The notes: a model not told the origin generated them from the sequence alone. 55,508 bases of DNA from an uncultured Acidimicrobiaceae bacterium (GCA_964645875.1 CAZYCX010000004.1:1-55508); one strand, 5' to 3'. Counted from the stretch's first letter, positions 47,332-55,508 are shown. Made by a program: numbers and translations.

Positions 47332-49182
47332 ATGCATGAGGAGATCCTGATGCTGGCGCTGGTGTTGGCGGCAGCACTGGTCGGGGGACGGATCGCCAGT
47401 CGTTTTGGCTACCCGCCGATTCTTGGGGAGATAACCGCCGGCATCCTGTTGGGACCCCCAATCATCGGCATCCTCCAAGACAACGAAGCCATCGGTGTCC
47501 TCGGGGAGTTCGGGATCCTGCTGATGATGCTCTACATCGGCATGCACCTCGATCTGGGTGACCTCAAGCGGGCCTCTGTCCCCGGGCTTCTCGCCGCGAC
47601 CGGCGGCTTCATCGTGCCCACCGCCGCGGGGATGATCTTGATGCTGGCGGTCGGCCGCACCTTCCTCGAAGCGCTGTTCGTCGGTCTCGCCATGGGGGTG
47701 ACCTCCCTGGCGACCAAGTCGCGCATACTCGTCGACTTGAAGATCCTCGACACCAGGATCGCCCACGTCCTGGTGGCCGGTGCCCTGCTCTCCGACGTAG
47801 CCGTCCTCCTGGTGTTCGCCGCGGTGGTGGGCGGGGACGTCACCGAGGGAGTGACTCTGGGCGTGGCCCTGCTCACCGGTGTCCGGGCTCTCGCCTTCGC
47901 TCTCGGCGCCGCCATCGTGGGAATGTGGCTCCTCCCGGCGCTGAAACGGCTGTTCGGGGATCGGGAGCTCGACCGGGGGGCGATGTTTCTCGCCGTGGTC
48001 GTCTTCGGGCTCGGCTTCGCCTACGCCGCCGAGTTGGCGGGCGTGCATGCCATTCTCGGCGCCTTTGTCGCCGGCCTCTTCATCGACAAGAGGATCATGG
48101 AGGCCAAGGTCTCGAAGGACGTGCAGCAGAAGCTGGCGACGATGTCGGTCGGAGTCCTCGCCCCGTTCTTCTTCGTCTCGGCCGGATTCGACGTCTCGTT
48201 GGGTGTCTTCCGCACCGACCTTCCGCTATTGGTCGCGGTGATAGTCCTGGCGACGCTGGGCAAGCTGATCGGCACCGCCCTCTTCTACCTCCCCAGCGGC
48301 AATGGGTGGCGCGAAGGGGTGGTGGTCGGAGCCGGGATGAACGGACGCGGGGCCGTCGAGATCATCGTCGCCGAGATCGCCCTGGAACGGGGCCTGATCG
48401 ACACCGACGTCTTCTCGATCCTGGTATTCATGGCTCTGTTCACCACCGCCACCGTTCCCATCATGCTCACGCTGGGAGTCCGCTGGCTGCGCCGTCGGGG
48501 CGAGCTGGTCAGGGCCGGCGATCGAACCAAGGCGCTCATCATCGGCGCCGGAGTCATCGCCCGCCGGATAGGTGTGGAACTGCATCAATCGATGCCGGTG
48601 ACACTCCTCGACACCAACAGGGCCAACCTCGTGGCCGGGGAGAGCGAAGGTCTCGACGGGCACGTCGGGAGCGGACTCGAGGAGGTGGCCCTCGAGGATG
48701 CCGGCATCGAGTATGCCCTCATCGTGGTCGCGGCCACACCGAATGCCGAGGTCAACGTGCTGGCTGCCCAGCTCGCTCTCGACTTCGGGGTGCCCGAGGT
48801 GTCAGTCCTGCTCCGGGAGTCGGACCGGAAGACATTCGAGGCGAGACTCGCCGAGGCGGATGTCAAGGTCATCCGGGCCCCGGAGGACTTCAGCGACTGG
48901 GAGCACGCCTTGACCACCGGTCAGGCCACCTTGGACACCATCGAGAACGGAGAGGCGATGGACCGATTCCGCGACGCCTCGGACCCACAGTGGGTATATG
49001 AGGATCGGCCGACCGGGGAGTTCCCACTCGTCGTGATCAGCAACGGAGAGCGGAGCCCATACACCACCGAGGAGCGGTTGGGAGAAGACGAGCAGTTACT
49101 CGTTTTGCGAAGGCTCGACGTCTCCACACCACAACCGGAGCCCCGGCCATCGTCCCCGGAGGACCCGGACGAGTCGGGCTAG
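47332..49182 (+). CDS. CPA2 cation:proton antiporter with a C-terminal TrkA-N/RCK domain
   Basis: PPILGEITAGILLGP, TSL, LLSDV, ILGAFVAG, PFFFVSAG, GMNGRG; Rossmann motif IIGAGVIA; SD GAGGT. Confidence 0.9.
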   Translation: MHEEILMLALVLAAALVGGRIASRFGYPPILGEITAGILLGPPIIGILQDNEAIGVLGEFGILLMMLYIGMHLDLGDLKRASVPGLLAATGGFIVPTAAGMILMLAVGRTFLEALFVGLAMGVTSLATKSRILVDLKILDTRIAHVLVAGALLSDVAVLLVFAAVVGGDVTEGVTLGVALLTGVRALAFALGAAIVGMWLLPALKRLFGDRELDRGAMFLAVVVFGLGFAYAAELAGVHAILGAFVAGLFIDKRIMEAKVSKDVQQKLATMSVGVLAPFFFVSAGFDVSLGVFRTDLPLLVAVIVLATLGKLIGTALFYLPSGNGWREGVVVGAGMNGRGAVEIIVAEIALERGLIDTDVFSILVFMALFTTATVPIMLTLGVRWLRRRGELVRAGDRTKALIIGAGVIARRIGVELHQSMPVTLLDTNRANLVAGESEGLDGHVGSGLEEVALEDAGIEYALIVVAATPNAEVNVLAAQLALDFGVPEVSVLLRESDRKTFEARLAEADVKVIRAPEDFSDWEHALTTGQATLDTIENGEAMDRFRDASDPQWVYEDRPTGEFPLVVISNGERSPYTTEERLGEDEQLLVLRRLDVSTPQPEPRPSSPEDPDESG

Positions 49183-50468
49183 TCCCCCGACCCCTCGGCC
49201 AACTCGGTCAGCTCCACCTCGCGCACCCGACGGCCGTCGGTTCTGGTGACCTTCAGACGCCAACCCCCCTCTTCGACGACGTCCCCGGTCGCCGGGAGAC
49301 GACCGAGCCGGTCCATGATCAGACCGCCAAGCGTCTCGTACTCACCCTCAGGCAGATCGACACCGAACTCCACCAGCTGATCCGGTCTCACCAGGGCAGG
49401 GGTGAGTATGCGCCCGTCGGCCGTCTTGGTGGGACGGCGCTCCCGTCGGTCGTGCTCATCCCTGATCTCGCCGACCAGTTCCTCGGCGATGTCTTCCATG
49501 GTGATGATTCCTGTTGTGGAGCCGTGCTCGTCGACGACGATGGCGAAGTGGATGCGGGTCTTTCGCATCTCGTCGAGCACGGACCGAATGTGCGCCGACT
49601 CGGGGACGAAGAGGACGTTGCGGATGAGCTCGGCGTCGACACGAGCGTCTTGGTCGGCGTCGTCTCTCCCCATGAGATCCTTGACATGCACGAAGCCGAG
49701 GACATCGTCGAGATCGTCGCGATAGATCGGAATCCTCGAGTGGCCTGTTCGTCGCATCATCTCCTCGATCTGACCCACCGAGATGCCCTGCTCAGCGGCT
49801 ATGACGTCAGGCCGGGGAATCATCACCTCGCCCGCGTCGAGGTCGCCGAACATGATGGCCCCGGTCAGGAGCCGGTGGGTGAAGTCCTCGATCACGCCTT
49901 CCTCTTGGCCGGTGGCGATTATCACGGCGAGGTCGTCGGCCGAGTGGCCCACATCGAGGGAGGCGGCAGGCTTGACACCGAACATCCTCAACACCGCATT
50001 GGCTATGGCGTTGAGTGCGGCGATGAGAGGGCGAAAGAGGATGATGTACCCGCGGAAGAGGTGGGCGAGCGCCATAGCGGAACGCTCGGGGTTGGAGATG
50101 GCGATGTTCTTGGGAGCCATCTCTCCCACCACCATGTGCAGGAAGACCACGATCAGGAGGGCGATGACGAGAGCGATGACGTGTACCACCTGCTCAGGAA
50201 GGGGCAGGAATCCGAAGCCGCGTTCGAGTAGGTGGGCGACCGCCGGCTCGGCGACCGCACCGAGGCCCAGCGAGGCCATGGTGATTCCGAGCTGGGCGCC
50301 GGTGAGGCTGAGAGAGAGATTCCGGTTGAGCCCGACGGCGATCCGAGCCGAAGGCTTCGGGGTCTGCTCGAGGACGTTTCGGCGGGCGGTGATATAGGCG
50401 AACTCTGCGGCGACGAAAACCCCATTGGCCACGAGGAGCAAGACCATCAGACCGAGTGGCCACAACAT
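49179..50468 (-). CDS. CNNM/CorB (DUF21-CBS-CorC, 'hemolysin family') protein
   Basis: ANGVFVAAEF, GAQLGIT, VGEMAPKN, VMIPR, GHSRIP, VVDEHG, EELVGEIRDEHD, YETLGG. Confidence 0.93.
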   Translation of the reverse strand: MLWPLGLMVLLLVANGVFVAAEFAYITARRNVLEQTPKPSARIAVGLNRNLSLSLTGAQLGITMASLGLGAVAEPAVAHLLERGFGFLPLPEQVVHVIALVIALLIVVFLHMVVGEMAPKNIAISNPERSAMALAHLFRGYIILFRPLIAALNAIANAVLRMFGVKPAASLDVGHSADDLAVIIATGQEEGVIEDFTHRLLTGAIMFGDLDAGEVMIPRPDVIAAEQGISVGQIEEMMRRTGHSRIPIYRDDLDDVLGFVHVKDLMGRDDADQDARVDAELIRNVLFVPESAHIRSVLDEMRKTRIHFAIVVDEHGSTTGIITMEDIAEELVGEIRDEHDRRERRPTKTADGRILTPALVRPDQLVEFGVDLPEGEYETLGGLIMDRLGRLPATGDVVEEGGWRLKVTRTDGRRVREVELTELAEGSGD

Positions 50469-51781
50469 CAGCCGTTGTCACCTCGCCAACCGGCCAACCG
50501 AATCGCCCGCACTCGGTCGACGCGATGGCCGTCCATCTCGAGAACCTCGAATGTGAAGGCTCCCGCCGGGACGATCTCCCCGACCTCGGGAAAACGCCCG
50601 AGAGTGGCGACCAGGAATCCGCCAAGGGTCTCGTAGTGGCCCTCCGGCCACTCGAACCCGATCCGCTCATCGACGTCGTGGCGGTTGAGGAGCCCGGAGA
50701 GCACGTCGATCTGATCGGTTGTGGCGGGAGAAGACGCCTCTTCGTCGTACTCGTCCTCTATCTCGCCGAAGATCTCCTCGAGGACGTCCTCGATGGTGAT
50801 GATCCCGGCGGTGCCCCCGTACTCGTCGATCACCATGGCCATGCCCCGCCCCTCGGTCTGTAACCGTGTCAACAGATACTCCAACCGCGACGCGTCCGGG
50901 ACCCGCAATCCAGGCTGAGCGATATCTTCCACCGGCGTCGATTCCCGCTGAGTAGGAGAGATGCCGATCGTGTCCTTGACATGGGCGATGCCGACGATCT
51001 CGTCCAGGTCGAGGCCGTAGACGGGGAAGCGGGAGTGACCGGTGTCCTGAGCCATCTGTCGAAGCTCGGAGATCGGCTGATGGCGGTTGATGGCCATGAC
51101 GTTGACCCGGGGAACCATCGCTTCGGCCGCCACCTTCTCGGTGAAGGTGATCGCCCTCGTCAGCAGTTCCATCTCATCGTCGTCGAGACGCCCCTCCTCA
51201 CCCGATGAGCGGATCATCAGCTCCAGCTCCTCCATCGATCTCACGCCGGCGAGCTCGGCACGGGGCTCGATGCCGAGCTTGCGGACTGTCCAGTCGGCAG
51301 AGTTGTTGAGGAACAGAATGAGAGGGCGCAAGGCGCGGTTCACCATCTGCATCGGGTTCCCGAACAGGACCGCAGATCGATATGGCCGGGAGATGGCGAG
51401 ATTCTTCGGCACCAACTCCCCGAAGATCATTTGGGCCATGGTCGCCAGAACGAAGGCGATGGCGACCGACAAGGCGAGTGATGTCGCCTCGGTGAGAGTG
51501 CCGAAGTCCCCGATGAGAGGAGTGAGCACAGCCGCGATGGTGGGCTCCGCGATCGCACCGAGAACCAGCGACGTCACGGTGATGCCCAACTGGGCGCCGG
51601 ACAACTCGAACGACAGGTTGCGCAGCGACTTCAGGATGCGACGGGCCGCCCGATCTCCCTCGCGTGCTTTGCGCTCGACACTGCTGCGCTCCACGGCGAC
51701 GATCGCGAACTCGCCGGCGACGAAGAACCCGTTGGCCAGGATGAGGAAGACAACTGCGGCCAACCCCAGGAAGGTGCTAAT
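50468..51781 (-). CDS. CNNM/CorB (DUF21-CBS-CorC) protein, paralogue; probable ATT start (fallback TTG at 51763)
   Basis: ANGFFVAGEF, GAQLGIT, FGELVPKN, GHSRFP, IDEYGG, EEIFGEIEDEYD; its stop overlaps the next ATG. Confidence 0.92.
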   Translation of the reverse strand: MSTFLGLAAVVFLILANGFFVAGEFAIVAVERSSVERKAREGDRAARRILKSLRNLSFELSGAQLGITVTSLVLGAIAEPTIAAVLTPLIGDFGTLTEATSLALSVAIAFVLATMAQMIFGELVPKNLAISRPYRSAVLFGNPMQMVNRALRPLILFLNNSADWTVRKLGIEPRAELAGVRSMEELELMIRSSGEEGRLDDDEMELLTRAITFTEKVAAEAMVPRVNVMAINRHQPISELRQMAQDTGHSRFPVYGLDLDEIVGIAHVKDTIGISPTQRESTPVEDIAQPGLRVPDASRLEYLLTRLQTEGRGMAMVIDEYGGTAGIITIEDVLEEIFGEIEDEYDEEASSPATTDQIDVLSGLLNRHDVDERIGFEWPEGHYETLGGFLVATLGRFPEVGEIVPAGAFTFEVLEMDGHRVDRVRAIRLAGWRGDNG

Positions 51782-51846: not shown

Positions 51847-52080
51847 TCAGGCTCTCCCTTCCTGACGCATGAACGATACGTGGGCCAGAGCGAACATCGC
51901 GGCGGTTCATGGGATCATGATCGACAGTTGGGGCCAGACCACGCCGAGACTCTGCGTCAGACTCAGTGCCCAGACGATTGCCCGGTCCACCTGCTCGACC
52001 GTGATGAGACCAACGGTGCGCATTTGGGGATCCAGGAGCATGGCCGAACCCTGCTGGAACAGCACGATCGGCGAGACCTG
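51847..52080 (-). pseudogene. 3' remnant of an ABC-2-type transporter permease
   Basis: Manual translation QVSPIVLFQQGSAMLLDPQMRTVGLITVEQVDRAIVWALSLTQSLGVVWPQLSIMIP*TAAMFALAHVSFMRQEGRA*; internal stop, 5' part absent. Confidence 0.6.
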
Positions 52081-52171
52081 GGGGTGCGGCCGGGAGCCTC
52101 ACCCAGATTGTTCTTAGATTTGTCAAAACCTGGTGAGTGAGCGGGGCGGGCGGATACGTACAGTCGAAACC

Positions 52172-52510
52172 ATGACTGTCATCCGTTCGGTTCTCTTGTT
52201 CATTCTCGCCGCCATCGCCGAGATCGGAGGGGCCTACCTCGTCTGGCAAGGGGTTCGTGAACGTCGTGGCCTCGGATTCGTGGGTCTCGGCGTCCTAGCT
52301 CTCGGGTTCTACGGGTTCATTGCCACGTTCCAGCCGAGTCCGCATTTCGGGAGGATCCTGGCTGCCTACGGTGGTGTTTTCGTGGCCGGCTCGCTCACCT
52401 GGGGGATCGTCTTCGACGGATTCCGTCCCGACCGATACGACATCATCGGTGCGCTCATCTGCCTGGTGGGCGTGGCGGTGATCATGTACTCACCCCGCTC
52501 ATTGGGCTGA
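52172..52510 (+). CDS. ynfA: YnfA/UPF0060 small membrane protein
   Basis: [45 protein letters not shown]. Confidence 0.92.
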
Positions 52511-52536
52511 GCTCATTGGCTGAGGCCAATCGAGCG

Positions 52537-52872
52537 TCAGTCGTCCTTCTGATCGACGGTCGGCAACTCTCTGGGGAGCAGCGGGTTGGGCCGATTCCGC
52601 TGCCAGCGTTCGATGTCGTCGCCGTCGCAGCTGTGACAGAGGTGGACGATCCGAATTCCCACCACCGAGAGTTGGGTTCCCCTCGATTTCTCCACGATGG
52701 CGTGTGGCACTGCCTGAAGGTCGTTGCCCTCACAATCGGGACACACCGGTGTGGTAGGGCGCTCCCATGTTTGGCCGCAAGCGCCACAGGTGATGGTGAT
52801 GACCTCGTCGTGACGTTCTCCGCTCAGATCCTCGGTCTCACCGCAGAGTGGGCACGTGATCTCCAGCGCCAT
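52537..52872 (-). CDS. Hypothetical zinc-ribbon protein with four CxxC pairs
   Basis: CPLC, CGAC, CPDC, CHSC in 111 aa from MALEIT; starts 4 nt after the upstream stop. Confidence 0.75.
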   Translation of the reverse strand: MALEITCPLCGETEDLSGERHDEVITITCGACGQTWERPTTPVCPDCEGNDLQAVPHAIVEKSRGTQLSVVGIRIVHLCHSCDGDDIERWQRNRPNPLLPRELPTVDQKDD

Positions 52873-52876
52873 GGGT

Positions 52877-53062
52877 TCAGTCGTCGGGCCAGCACTTGGG
52901 GCAAGACGTCTGGCCACGACGCTCAGCCTGGGTGCGTATCGCCACCACTCCCCGGATCCGCTCCGGGGCGCAAGCCGGACGCGCCTCGTCATCCGGGTGG
53001 GGACGGTGATAGTGCGGTTCGCTCATGTATGAGAGAACAAGTCTGTCTCGCGGGTCGGTCAT
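52877..53062 (-). CDS. Small HCCC metal-binding protein, paralogue B
   Basis: PHYHR...RPAC...AERRGQTSCPKCW; clear similarity to 53207-53425. Confidence 0.7.
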   Translation of the reverse strand: MTDPRDRLVLSYMSEPHYHRPHPDDEARPACAPERIRGVVAIRTQAERRGQTSCPKCWPDD

Positions 53063-53206
53063 CGGTTTCTCGTCCTCGACGCTGATAGCAATCGCCCACT
53101 CATGTTGTCAGCGTCTCCGAGTTCGCGGAGATCGTTGTGGCGGGCCGGGCCGGGCCCGGGGCACGGTGTTCGACGAGAAGCCTCGAACTGCTGCGGGCTC
53201 CACCGG

Positions 53207-53425
53207 TCAGGCATCCAGGTCTTCCTCCCAACAGTCACCACAGGCGATTAGACCTCTGTCTTGAGCGCGTATCAGCTGTGTGAGCACCCCCGGCCCACGG
53301 CCGGGCTCGCATGCCGGCCGGTTGGGCCGATCGAGATCCCGTCGGTGGTAGTGAGGATCGATCCCCTGGTAGGTGACGACGAGACTCGAGTGAGGGCCGA
53401 GCATTGGCCGCCGGGACCGCGTCAT
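53207..53425 (-). CDS. Small HCCC metal-binding protein, paralogue A
   Basis: PHYHR...RPAC...AQDRGLIACGDCW; ATG overlaps the prfC stop (ATGA). Confidence 0.7.
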   Translation of the reverse strand: MTRSRRPMLGPHSSLVVTYQGIDPHYHRRDLDRPNRPACEPGRGPGVLTQLIRAQDRGLIACGDCWEEDLDA

Positions 53426-54987
53426 AGACCGATGATCGGATCGAGTGTGATCGATGGATGGTCGCGCACCGCTGCGTCGAGCCACGACTGATTGGAGAAG
53501 AGGGCGAGGACGGTCCCGTCACTGCGAGAGGCGACCTCGACTCCCCGGCGACCCGACAGCGCTTCCCTGCCGGCCCTGTCCGTCCGGCGCGCCAGGGTGT
53601 ACGGGGCGGGGTCGAACTGAGGCTGGGCCCCGAACTCGTTCTGCAGTCGATGGAGGGCGACCTCGAACTGGAGCTCTCCCACCGCGGCGAGGATGGGCTC
53701 ACGCTCACCTCCCTCGTATGTGTGGAGCGCCTGGATGACACCCTCCTGGTCGAGTTGGGCTACTCCCTTGCGAAACTGCTTGTAACGGGCGGTGTCCAGG
53801 TTGCGGGCTATGCGGAAGTGCTCCGGAGCGAAGGTGGGGATGGGGGGGAACTCGGCGTCGCCACTGGTGCTCAGACTGTCACCGATTCGAAGGTCAGTCG
53901 CGTTGACCAAGCCGACCACGTCACCTGGATGGGCGATATCTACGGTCTGACGCTCGTTGCCGAACACCTGATGGGCGTACTTGGTCGAGAAACTCTTCCC
54001 GGTCCGATGGTTGACCAACGTCATCCCCCGCTCGAACCGCCCGGAGCAGACCCTCATGAAGGCGAGGTGGTCGCGATGACGGGCATCGAGGTTGGCCTGC
54101 ATCTTGAAGACGAATCCGGAGAGCTCACCATCGATCGGTCTGGGATCTCCGCGCTTCTGGCTCTTCGACTGGGGCGCGGGTGCCATCTCGGCGATCGCAT
54201 CGAGCAGGAGTCGCACCCCGAAGTTCCACAGGGCCGAGCCGAAGAAGACCGGGGTCGACTCACCGGCCATGAACCGCTTGGAGTCGTGATCTGCCTCGAC
54301 GGCATCGAGCAGATCCAACTCCTGGGCGACTCGTGAGCCAGCGTCCGAACCTTCCAGATCCAGAGCCGACGCCCTCTCGTCACCGATGCTGCTGCCGCGT
54401 GCCGTGCGTTCGAAACGCCACAGAGTCCGATCTCTGCGGTCGACCACTCCGGCGAAATCGGGACCGTTGCCCACCGGCCAGGTGACCGGGGTGGCCCTTA
54501 TGCCGAGCTGGTCCTCGATGTCGTCGATCAGGGCGAGCGGGCTGAGGGCGGGCCGGTCGAGCTTGTTGACGAAGGTGAGCAGTGGGATGCCCCGAGCCTG
54601 GGCAACCTGGAACAGTTTGAGTGTCTGTGCCTCGATCCCTCGCGCCCCATCGAGGACTATGACAGCCGCATCCACCGCCGACAACACCCGGTAGGTGTCC
54701 TCGGAGAAGTCGCGGTGTCCCGGAGTGTCCAGGAGATTGAACAAGAGACCATCGTGAGGGAACTGCAGGACCGTTGACGTGATGGAGATCCCCCGCTCCC
54801 GCTCCATCTCCATCCAGTCGGACGTGACATCACGCTGTCTGCCCGACCTGGCGCGAACCGCTCCGGCCTCCGCTATCGCCCCCGAATAGAGGAGCAGCTT
54901 CTCGGTGAGAGTCGTCTTCCCGGCGTCGGGATGAGAGATGATCGCGAATGTCCGACGCCGCTCGGCTTCGGCGCGCACTGAGGTCAT
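53422..54987 (-). CDS. prfC: Peptide chain release factor 3
   Basis: RRRTFAIISHPDAGKTTLTEKLLL, SDWMEMERERGISI, DTPGHRDFSEDTYR, NKLD, GFVFKMQAN, AVGELQFEV. Confidence 0.97.
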   Translation of the reverse strand: MTSVRAEAERRRTFAIISHPDAGKTTLTEKLLLYSGAIAEAGAVRARSGRQRDVTSDWMEMERERGISITSTVLQFPHDGLLFNLLDTPGHRDFSEDTYRVLSAVDAAVIVLDGARGIEAQTLKLFQVAQARGIPLLTFVNKLDRPALSPLALIDDIEDQLGIRATPVTWPVGNGPDFAGVVDRRDRTLWRFERTARGSSIGDERASALDLEGSDAGSRVAQELDLLDAVEADHDSKRFMAGESTPVFFGSALWNFGVRLLLDAIAEMAPAPQSKSQKRGDPRPIDGELSGFVFKMQANLDARHRDHLAFMRVCSGRFERGMTLVNHRTGKSFSTKYAHQVFGNERQTVDIAHPGDVVGLVNATDLRIGDSLSTSGDAEFPPIPTFAPEHFRIARNLDTARYKQFRKGVAQLDQEGVIQALHTYEGGEREPILAAVGELQFEVALHRLQNEFGAQPQFDPAPYTLARRTDRAGREALSGRRGVEVASRSDGTVLALFSNQSWLDAAVRDHPSITLDPIIGL

Positions 54988-55385
54988 ACCCGTCGCCGCG
55001 CCTTCATCGACGACAGTCCTTCGAGCGCGTCGCGGGCCTGATGCAGGCGATCCTCCAACTCGTCACAGCGTTGACGCGCTACCTCGAGCACCTCTTCGAG
55101 CCGTTTCGCTGACGAGGACGAACGCCCGTTCCCGGCCTGGTTGGCCGCCTCGAGGAGCTCTCCCATGGTCTCGAGTGACATGCCGATCGGCTTGAGGGCC
55201 TTGACGAGACGGAGTTGATCGATGTCCGACTCGGTGTAGAGGCGGAACCCCCCCTCGCTGCGTCCCGACGGGGACACCAGTCCGATCTCCTCGTAGTAGC
55301 GAATCGTGCGCAGCGAGAGACCGACGGACTCGGCCACTTCTCCAATCTGAAAATGCTCATCGATCACGGCTACGTACTCCCTCAT
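54984..55385 (-). CDS. MerR-family transcriptional regulator
   Basis: QIGEVAESVGLSLRTIRYYEEIGL..SGRSEGGFRLY; its stop overlaps the prfC ATG. Confidence 0.93.
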   Translation of the reverse strand: MREYVAVIDEHFQIGEVAESVGLSLRTIRYYEEIGLVSPSGRSEGGFRLYTESDIDQLRLVKALKPIGMSLETMGELLEAANQAGNGRSSSSAKRLEEVLEVARQRCDELEDRLHQARDALEGLSSMKARRRV

Positions 55386-55441
55386 GGACGGCTCGTGGTA
55401 CGTCTCGAGCTCGTTTTGGCGGACCAGGCCGGTAGCGGGAT

Positions 55442-55467
55442 ACTCTACCCTAACGTAAGGGAAGAGT
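55442..55467. promoter_or_regulatory. Putative MerR operator (imperfect 26-bp palindrome)
   Basis: ACTCTACCCTAACGTAAGGGAAGAGT; reverse complement ACTCTTCCCTTACGTTAGGGTAGAGT. Confidence 0.7.
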
Positions 55468-55489
55468 TGAATTGGAGAGTCAAGGAAAC

Positions 55490-55508
55490 GTGAGCCAGCA
55501 AGTAACCA
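55490..55508 (+). CDS. Possible start of a divergent gene cut by the window edge (MSQQVT...)
   Basis: GTG preceded by AAGGA, 23 nt from the palindrome; too short to identify. Confidence 0.3.

Follow-up and report, generated by a model that had tools for sequence, protein, structure and literature searches.

A candidate MerR-controlled, mobile stress cassette carrying release factor 3 in a subclade of soil Acidimicrobiia

This analysis concerns five genes on the minus strand near one end of a 55,508-nucleotide (nt) stretch of DNA from an uncultured Acidimicrobiaceae bacterium (GCA_964645875.1 CAZYCX010000004.1:1-55508, hereafter the window). They encode a MerR-family regulator (merR), release factor 3 (RF3, prfC), two small proteins that we call miniA and miniB, and a protein with four CxxC motifs (the 4xCxxC or CxxC protein). 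The window is the whole of contig C4, from an assembly of 2.58 Mb and 91% completeness (G000 in our comparisons), and the contig ends 123 nt upstream of the merR ATG. Reading of the strand and the list of open reading frames (ORFs) confirmed the gene order of the original prediction, which was made from the sequence alone, and the two ATGA overlaps and the 4-nt gap that it described are present (ACCC, between miniB and the 4xCxxC ORF). The features of the locus, with protein lengths in amino acids (aa), are as follows.

52537..52872, minus strand: 4xCxxC protein, 111 aa, predicted double zinc ribbon, related to DUF6300
52877..53062, minus strand: miniB, 61 aa, predicted N-Ada-like zinc fold
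53063..53206, minus strand: spacer between miniA and miniB, 144 nt
53207..53425, minus strand: miniA, 72 aa, ATG overlapping the prfC TGA (ATGA)
53422..54987, minus strand: prfC, release factor 3, 521 aa, ATG overlapping the merR TGA (ATGA)
54984..55385, minus strand: merR, MerR-family regulator, 127 aa from the more likely start, the GTG at 55367, or 133 aa from the ATG
55416..55444, plus strand: weak candidate promoter for the divergent gene, read from the sequence
55442..55467, no strand: dyad and presumed MerR operator, a 26-nt imperfect inverted repeat, ACTCTTCCCTTAC / GTTAGGGTAGAGT
55442..55472, minus strand: candidate MerR-type promoter into merR, proposed from the sequence and a 14-locus alignment
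55490..55508, plus strand: start of the divergent gene, first 19 nt from a GTG (V-S-Q-Q-V-T), cut by the contig end

Near-identical DNA is present in soil metagenomes from several studies, and contigs from three independent ones (X4, X8, and X11) bridge the stretch from the CxxC gene through miniB and miniA to the 3′ end of prfC with few differences. A contig of run X4 continues for about 1.7 kb past 55508, the end of the window. In a contig from another run (X2), prfC is joined to miniB across window positions 53064-53428, with miniA skipped and 17 other letters between them. This contig has a depth of 4.6 and 30 other letters, shares its arrangement with the relative G011, and probably derives from a related species in the same soil.

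By its sequence matches, the prfC product is a bona fide RF3. It scores 612.3 bits against the NCBIfam equivalog PRK00741 (NF001964, cutoff 473) over residues 3-516 and 557.6 bits against TIGR00503 (cutoff 466.95), it matches the Pfam families GTP_EFTU (PF00009, 2.2e-50), EF-G_D2, and RF3_C (PF16658, 2.6e-35), and its translation contains the motifs AHPDAGKT, DTPGH, and NKLD. A check for a second copy, suggested with the original prediction, found prfC to be single in the assembly, the other matches being translational-GTPase-like with at most 40% identity.

The setting of these genes was compared across 301 genomes of the order, taken as a fixed sample. A merR ortholog (E<=1e-40) is present in 13 of them, and in nine of these it is followed directly by prfC (G000, G016, G027, G124, G175, G198, G237, G296, and G310). 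In the other four, which belong to two genera (G023, G202, G095, and G181), the gene directly after merR is of the miniA type, and prfC is on another contig. When G004, L082, L090, and L092 are added, the merR-prfC order is found in at least 13 Acidimicrobiia genomes, so the synteny that the original prediction proposed to look for in relatives exists. A metagenome contig (L161) carries the order operator-merR-prfC-miniB-CxxC. A scan of species genomes for RF3 relatives, from which 80 loci were kept, found merR upstream of prfC at nine loci, with three new genomes among them (L082, L090, and L092), and all nine RF3s are 76-84% identical to that of the window. The other 71 loci, including those of Actinoplanes, Thermobifida, Dehalococcoidia, and Acidobacteriota, have no merR. 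The merR-prfC order is kept at RF3 identities down to 74%. The genes behind merR form a mosaic, as follows.

prfC-miniA-miniB-CxxC: G000
prfC-miniA-SRPBCC-miniB-CxxC: G175, and G027 with a broken miniA
prfC-miniB-CxxC: G016 and L090
prfC-CxxC: G004
prfC-SRPBCC: G198, G296, and L082
miniA-SRPBCC-miniB: G202
miniA-SRPBCC: G095 and G181
miniA alone: G023

The SRPBCC gene (Polyketide_cyc2) lies at or beside the position of the miniA-miniB spacer in at least five relatives (G175, G027, G237, G202, G095, and others). In the 144-nt gap of the window no convincing remnant of it was found, the best match (E 0.044) being on the plus strand inside the miniB coding region. Whichever gene follows, in each of the 17 merR orthologs the stop codon overlaps the following start codon or lies directly against it (14 ATGA, 2 GTGA, and 1 TGATG), and prfC and miniA overlap in G000, in G175, and in a fragment from G310. 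This fragment (L071, on the 3984-nt contig C33) consists of the last 51 aa of prfC overlapping a full miniA-type gene; G310 also holds a complete merR-prfC-miniB-CxxC locus, and the fragment may come from a second strain in the bin or from a partial duplication. miniA is frameshifted in G027 (L020:1403-1602) and truncated in G124 (L028:1122-1223), with miniB intact in both, and it may be decaying in some lineages.

RF3 genes of the same clade are also found without merR. The closest relative, G011, whose RF3 is 91% identical to that of the window, has the order mgtE-prfC-miniB, the order prfC-miniB-CxxC occurs without merR in L088 and L165, and G288 has a locus of the G124 type but with prfC alone. 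L130 has an SRPBCC gene and a mini gene after an RF3 gene that is less closely related (62% identity). Most prfC-bearing genomes have prfC without merR.

RF3 (E<=1e-100) is encoded in 46 of the 301 genomes. Within the genus of the window, 3 of 20 further genomes encode it. In a tree of 22 RF3 sequences, the merR-linked copies form one clade with 97/95 support, with G310 unresolved. Different genera are intermixed in this clade, which also holds, separated by a very short distance, a genome from another family. This suggests that RF3 was transferred between genera. The phylogeny called for in the original prediction groups the merR-linked copies together, but in conflict with the genus labels. 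Like prfC of Escherichia coli, the gene of the window encodes a full-length equivalog with a G domain, domain 2, and RF3_C; unlike it, the gene is translationally coupled to a transcription-factor gene on its upstream side and to the gene of a small zinc protein on its downstream side, is patchy among genomes, and has apparently been transferred. A published survey found RF3 to be optional in bacteria, with no copy in 72 of 191 genomes, Mycobacterium and Streptomyces among them (PMC1780047). The accessible parts of the publications retrieved by a literature search for prfC together with MerR contain no MerR control of prfC and deal mostly with SXT/ICE elements that integrate into prfC; within that scope, the claim that this pairing had not been described stands.

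The palindrome that the original prediction proposed as an operator was confirmed as the dyad ACTCTTCCCTTACGTTAGGGTAGAGT at 55442-55467. A degenerate form of the dyad, with 1 mismatch allowed, has one match in the 2.58-Mb assembly, and a reversed-pattern control has 0. In an alignment of 14 loci that took in 170 nt upstream of each merR, the dyad was nearly invariant and lay at the same distance from merR in 13 of the 14; it is a perfect palindrome in G124 and has a divergent form in G016. With 2 mismatches allowed, G202, G095, G181, and G023 have one site each, at merR, and none at their unlinked prfC, so that MerR would control prfC only where prfC lies in the operon.

On the merR side, a -10-like hexamer (TAGAGT, 55447-55442) overlaps the end of the right arm of the dyad and reads towards merR. 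The -35-like hexamer, which is weak, is either TTCAAC (55471-55466, 18-nt spacer) or ATTCAA (55472-55467, 19-nt spacer). Promoters of the MerR family have the dyad within a spacer of 19-20 bp, and the spacer here is 18 or 19 nt, depending on the -35 hexamer chosen. Because the dyad overlaps the -10-like hexamer and lies within this spacer, MerR would be expected to control its own operon. On the divergent side, a candidate promoter made up of TTGGCG (55416-55421), a spacer of 17 nt, and GATACT (55439-55444) agrees with 8 of 12 consensus positions, which is below the scan threshold, and its transcript would cross the operator. A CCAAA motif (TTTGG on the plus strand) is kept in 10 of the 14 loci.

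An intergenic region of 104 nt separates merR from the divergent gene. At the corresponding position in relatives there is a 70-75 aa ORF (MSQPVTRLEIADAV...) divergent from merR, whose start is matched by the last 19 nt of the contig; two copies were scanned against PF11387 (DUF2795, cutoff 25), and those of G175 and G004 score 28.4 and 23.8 bits, respectively. The truncated gene at 55490 probably encodes such a DUF2795-type protein of 70 aa. The gene that the original prediction had named as a possible sole target of MerR thus exists, is of the DUF2795 type in relatives, and shares the operator region. DUF2795 genes are divergent from merR in G004, G175, G237, G124, G296, G095, G181, and L092. 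Wherever this gene is present, some 25 nt lie between its start and the dyad. Its leader must therefore run across the operator, and one operator probably serves both directions.

Further genes recur on the divergent side. An ADP-ribosylglycohydrolase gene (ARH; PF03747, 9e-64) follows the DUF2795 gene in G175, G237, G027, G095, and G181, and ARH is on the divergent side in G027 (upstream sequence) and G202. Further along this side, G237 has a gene for a glycosyltransferase with a QTMAN_N domain (PF12038, 8e-56). A glycosyltransferase gene of this kind (tRNA-queuosine mannosyltransferase N-domain, PF12038, E 5e-54 to 6e-59) adjoins the merR/prfC cassette in four genomes (L067:3620-4711, L063:1823-2896, L064:5505-6596, and L130:2064-3203), on the divergent side in three of them and downstream of prfC-SRPBCC-mini in L130, and is a second translation-related gene that accompanies RF3. 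Searches of the 91%-complete assembly for ARH, for a QTMAN-type glycosyltransferase, and for the remainder of the DUF2795 gene found none of the three, which is not proof of their absence. At the merR-prfC locus of L092, a gene for an OLD-family nuclease (AAA_15 and TOPRIM, L092:881-2176) adjoins the DUF2795 gene, which fits an island-like, mobile setting.

The MerR protein has a winged helix-turn-helix (HTH) of the MerR type (Pfam MerR_1, PF13411, 64.8 bits, cutoff 21.6, 7.8e-18; PF00376, 54.5 bits, cutoff 28.2) and a dimerization helix that aligns to the CueR helix (MerR-DNA-bind, PF09278, 30.3 bits, cutoff 25.4). Its best matches in NCBIfam and among Protein Data Bank (PDB) structures are CueR and ZntR (PDB 1q05 and 4wls), to which residues 13-114, covering the HTH and the dimerization helix, align with E ~1e-16. 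It is unlike CueR and ZntR in scoring far below the equivalog cutoffs (CueR, TIGR02044, 78.8 bits, cutoff 147.4; ZntR, TIGR02043, 71 bits, cutoff 167.95) and in lacking their C-terminal Cys loop. Assignment as an HspR, CueR, or ZntR ortholog was ruled out by the scores and the missing ligands. The sole cysteine, C107, is in the middle of the helix and is kept in 15 of the 17 orthologs, some of which carry a second Cys at ELLEC. None of the 17 has a Cys or His after the dimer helix, which leaves C107 or a partner protein such as miniA as candidates for the sensor. The MerR proteins of relatives begin with M-I-D-N-H, so the true start in the window is probably the GTG at 55367, which is preceded by AGGGAG, and not the ATG at 55385. 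In a genome of another family (G109, L073:5066-5200), a 44-aa ORF containing ...MIDNHIRIRGIA... resembles the MerR N terminus, lies upstream of a merR-less prfC (78% identical), and is probably a decayed merR.

MiniA and miniB are paralogs (42% identity, E 3e-15) for which no Pfam or NCBIfam match was found. A profile search of 1.84 billion representatives returned 27 family members at E<=1e-3 and 17 at 1e-10. Among the 301 genomes, 15 have strong matches and 20 have a match at E<=1e-3, five of these being weak. In the family alignment, His, Cys, Gly, and Cys columns are invariant and a further Cys is nearly so, and the predicted metal ligands are H19, C31, C54, and C57 in miniB and H27, C39, C62, and C65 in miniA. 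MiniA has a basic N terminus, and the conservation of its M-[ST]-R-R-R extension in orthologs supports the miniA ATG that overlaps the prfC stop codon. As judged by pairwise ratios of nonsynonymous to synonymous divergence (dN/dS 0.09-0.26 for miniB and 0.17-0.41 for miniA, with dS saturated), both proteins are under purifying selection.

The AF2 model of miniB (pLDDT 84.2) has the N-terminal zinc domain of Ada (N-Ada) as its only structural match. N-Ada takes the top three places in a Foldseek search of the PDB (E 1.5, TMq 0.51), and in a comparison with 48,161 chains, in which 3 chains reached Z>=2, two N-Ada structures (PDB 1u8b and 1eyf) scored Z 4.4 and 4.3, which is below the safe level, with a root-mean-square deviation of 2.7-2.9 Å over 50-52 of the 61 residues. 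Like N-Ada, the model has a metal ligand in a strand turn followed by a helix-G-x-x-C-x-x-C layout; unlike N-Ada, the minis have a His as the first ligand, a longer loop to the second, and no HTH domain. The position of this His is occupied in Ada by the nucleophilic (methyl-acceptor) Cys38, and N-Ada has four Cys zinc ligands, for which the minis have His, Cys, Cys, and Cys. Ada_Zn_binding (PF02805) matches neither miniA nor miniB and only 1 of 36 family members (E 0.059), and the mini-family profile gave chance-level matches to PDB sequences (the best a HelD-type helicase, E 0.23). Since sequence models do not confirm the relationship and the first ligand is His, we describe the minis as having a predicted N-Ada-like fold, not as members of the N-Ada family. 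A protein-atlas look-up of miniB led to unnamed actinobacterial clusters (score 0.83).

Mini genes also occur in other surroundings. They lie behind an AhpD-like CMD gene in G217 and G253 and behind an AHSA1/SRPBCC gene in G103. On three metagenome contigs, two of them nearly identical (L160, L162:2103-5424, and L163), miniB-type genes (72% identical) lie downstream of TrkA/TrkH and just upstream of genes for DUF305, a CsoR-type metal repressor (PF02583, 1.8e-29), and a heavy-metal P-type ATPase, with no prfC, merR, or CxxC gene in the flanks. These CMD, AHSA1, CsoR, and ATPase neighbors point to metal or redox stress. A prediction of an RF3-miniA complex, run without controls, gave a score of 0.00 and a mark of 0.32 and counts neither way.

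The 4xCxxC protein scores 22.3 bits against DUF6300 (PF19817), below the cutoff of 27.8. It has 137 homologs, many with a precomputed PF19817 annotation, and its nearest Atlas clusters are of the DUF6300 type, with PF19817 on 12-16% of members; in the accessible literature DUF6300, like DUF2795, receives only passing mentions. The motifs EKSRGTQLSVVG and RPNPLxPxxLPT are invariant in the family. The AF2 model (pLDDT 83.6) contains two zinc ribbons and retrieved only generic zinc ribbons with Foldseek (Elf1 and Rpb9, E>=0.18). The protein occurs in 116 of the 301 genomes, mostly unlinked to prfC, with neighbors that vary between families, such as genes for methyltransferases, hydrolases, and CoA-binding proteins (window 52537-52872 and loci L032-L053). 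Its association with the cassette is secondary. On its own, the protein resembles a conserved, lineage-specific zinc-ribbon protein with a housekeeping role. The original prediction had proposed a fixed system tying termination quality control to zinc proteins. This part of it gave way to the mostly unrelated neighbors of the CxxC gene, to the presence of prfC mostly without merR, and to the four genomes in which merR is joined to miniA and prfC lies elsewhere without the operator, so that the interpretation as a whole is partly supported.

Genes for magnesium transport lie around the cassette in the genus (window 49179-51763; L017:3552-4877; L019:5852-6523). Two CNNM/CorC-type genes are downstream of it in the window and in G011, MgtE is directly upstream of prfC in G011, and MgtC is upstream of merR in G016. 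A gene for a YnfA/UPF0060 membrane protein (window 52133-52510, plus strand) is convergent with the CxxC gene, with 26 nt between the stop codons, and is absent from the corresponding locus of G011. Within 52000-55508, an Rfam scan gave no match at E<=1, and no terminator-like site was found on the minus strand. Neither the miniA-miniB gap (z -0.28) nor the merR leader (z -0.45) folds better as RNA than shuffled sequences.

Based on these results, we lean toward reading the locus as an accessory, horizontally mobile, MerR-autoregulated stress cassette of one soil Acidimicrobiia subclade, with RF3 as cargo and with metal or thiol/redox state as the most likely signal. In this model, a short MerR without a ligand-binding loop would bind the single 26-bp dyad between merR and the divergent DUF2795 gene and would control an operon of merR, prfC, miniA, miniB, and the CxxC gene (cxxC4), the first three of which are translationally coupled through their ATGA overlaps. 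Among the genomes compared, the operator and merR stay constant, and prfC, miniA, the SRPBCC gene, miniB, and the CxxC gene form a small pool of cargo. As small, putatively metal-binding His-Cys3 proteins, the minis would be one route by which stress is sensed, the other being the conserved Cys in the MerR dimer helix. Because prfC lies inside the MerR operon, we propose that RF3 is made here only from the regulated transcript, and its expression in this genome is probably conditional. Whether MerR activates or represses, which signal it answers, and what benefit additional RF3 brings under stress are matters of inference.

Parts of this arrangement have counterparts in known systems. In Tn21 and Tn501, MerR regulates merTPAD from divergent, overlapping promoters, PmerR and PmerT. 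The locus described here is similar in having a MerR HTH, one dyad in a short divergent intergenic region, a presumed operator within a candidate long-spacer promoter, and a regulator gene that adjoins its presumed target. It differs in that the predicted long-spacer-like promoter reads into the operon of merR itself and not into the divergent genes, in that this MerR lacks the metal-binding Cys triad, and in that the cargo is a translation factor with small zinc proteins instead of detoxification genes. The tipA and bmr-bmrR systems are autoregulated MerR-type operons whose regulators carry C-terminal ligand-binding domains. The regulator described here would likewise be part of the transcript that it controls; unlike those regulators, it ends soon after the coiled coil.

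Several observations weigh against a MerR-autoregulated cassette. A consensus scan of 52000-55508 reports no sigma-70-type promoter, so the use of the merR-side promoter is something that we infer, and the dyad is about 2 bp off-center in the proposed spacer, where classical MerR promoters do not have it off-center. The holders of the locus that were listed include no RNA run, the matching runs being DNA contigs. The 144-nt gap before miniB could hold a promoter of its own, C107 is missing in 2 of the 17 MerR orthologs, and in G011 prfC-miniB lies behind mgtE without merR, so that even members of the genus can dispense with MerR control of prfC. All of the genomes are metagenome bins, so the incongruence of the tree could partly reflect binning errors, and counts over related genomes are not independent.

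Other readings of the locus put the weight on different genes. It is possible, although unlikely, that MerR chiefly regulates the divergent DUF2795(-ARH) unit, as the MerR of Tn21/Tn501 does merTPAD, and only represses its own promoter, with prfC and the small genes expressed at a low constitutive level and without stress logic. This would suit the fixed distance of about 25 nt between dyad and divergent gene, with a leader that crosses the operator, as well as the recurrence of that gene at eight loci, often with ARH next to it, and the weak 17-nt-spacer promoter that can be read on its strand. However, the best -10-like hexamer that overlaps the dyad (TAGAGT) points to merR, the dyad is kept in G198 though the divergent neighbor there is a QTMAN_N glycosyltransferase, and the upstream gene in G016 (MgtC) is co-directional. 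Less convincing to us is a two-protein sensor, in which MerR would bind DNA, miniA would sense metal or redox state, and prfC would be a later insertion between them. MerR-family proteins without an effector domain can be controlled by a partner, as TnrA/GlnR are by glutamine synthetase, and this MerR lacks the CueR/ZntR Cys loop although CueR and ZntR are its best matches; in 4 genomes of two genera merR runs into miniA through overlapping stop and start codons, and minis elsewhere adjoin metal-homeostasis genes. Against such a pairing, no mini accompanies merR and the dyad in G198, G296, G004, and L082, and G103, G217, G253, and G300 keep minis without this merR. We regard as distinctly improbable the related proposal of a split MerR system in which the His-Cys3 minis act as the missing sensor, metal or thiol stress turns on the operon, and RF3 is made only under termination or quality-control strain.

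The minis might instead be dedicated accessory factors that, by binding to the ribosome or to RF3, tune termination or quality control to the metal or redox state, which we also consider distinctly improbable. The hints of an action of the zinc proteins on RF3 are confined to co-occurrence (all 15 genomes with strong mini matches have RF3, compared with 46 of 301 overall) and to linkage, as the gene immediately after prfC is miniA or miniB at loci with and without merR (G000, G175, G016, G011, L088, L164, and L165) and the RF3 of L130, at 62% identity, is still followed by an SRPBCC gene and a mini. Physical linkage and shared ancestry account for most of this co-occurrence, however, and minis are also found away from prfC, after merR or beside CMD, AHSA1, and CsoR/ATPase genes, whereas 31 of the 46 RF3-bearing genomes have no mini and G004, G198, and G296 carry merR-prfC without minis. 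Least credible to us is that neutral shuffling of islands produced this gene order, with separate internal promoters and no shared regulation. The downstream genes do turn over fast between close relatives, and the 144-nt gap before miniB would leave room for a promoter, but the overlaps behind all 17 merR orthologs and between prfC and miniA (G000, G175, and the G310 fragment), the lack of a terminator-like site on the minus strand of 52000-55508, and the persistence of merR-prfC down to 74% RF3 identity speak against this reading.

Beyond gene identity and conservation, these proposals are drawn from the genomes of uncultured bacteria. That RF3 is optional was known already; what is new is the unusual cargo of a MerR cassette, along with a small protein family, which the analysis defines as a very small, uncharacterized His-Cys3 family with an N-Ada-like predicted fold, and an operator sequence that lends itself to testing. 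RF3 is usually viewed as a housekeeping factor, many bacteria lack it, and the reason why some keep it is unsettled. Here RF3 looks accessory, being patchy among close relatives, apparently mobile between genera, and placed behind a dedicated MerR-type switch. If the proposed regulation holds, the locus would offer a condition-dependent RF3 to study. If the minis were in addition the sensor of a split MerR system, this would be a stress-inducible, horizontally traded RF3 with lineage-specific zinc-protein partners, and a natural system for asking what purpose RF3 serves in bacteria that normally live without it.

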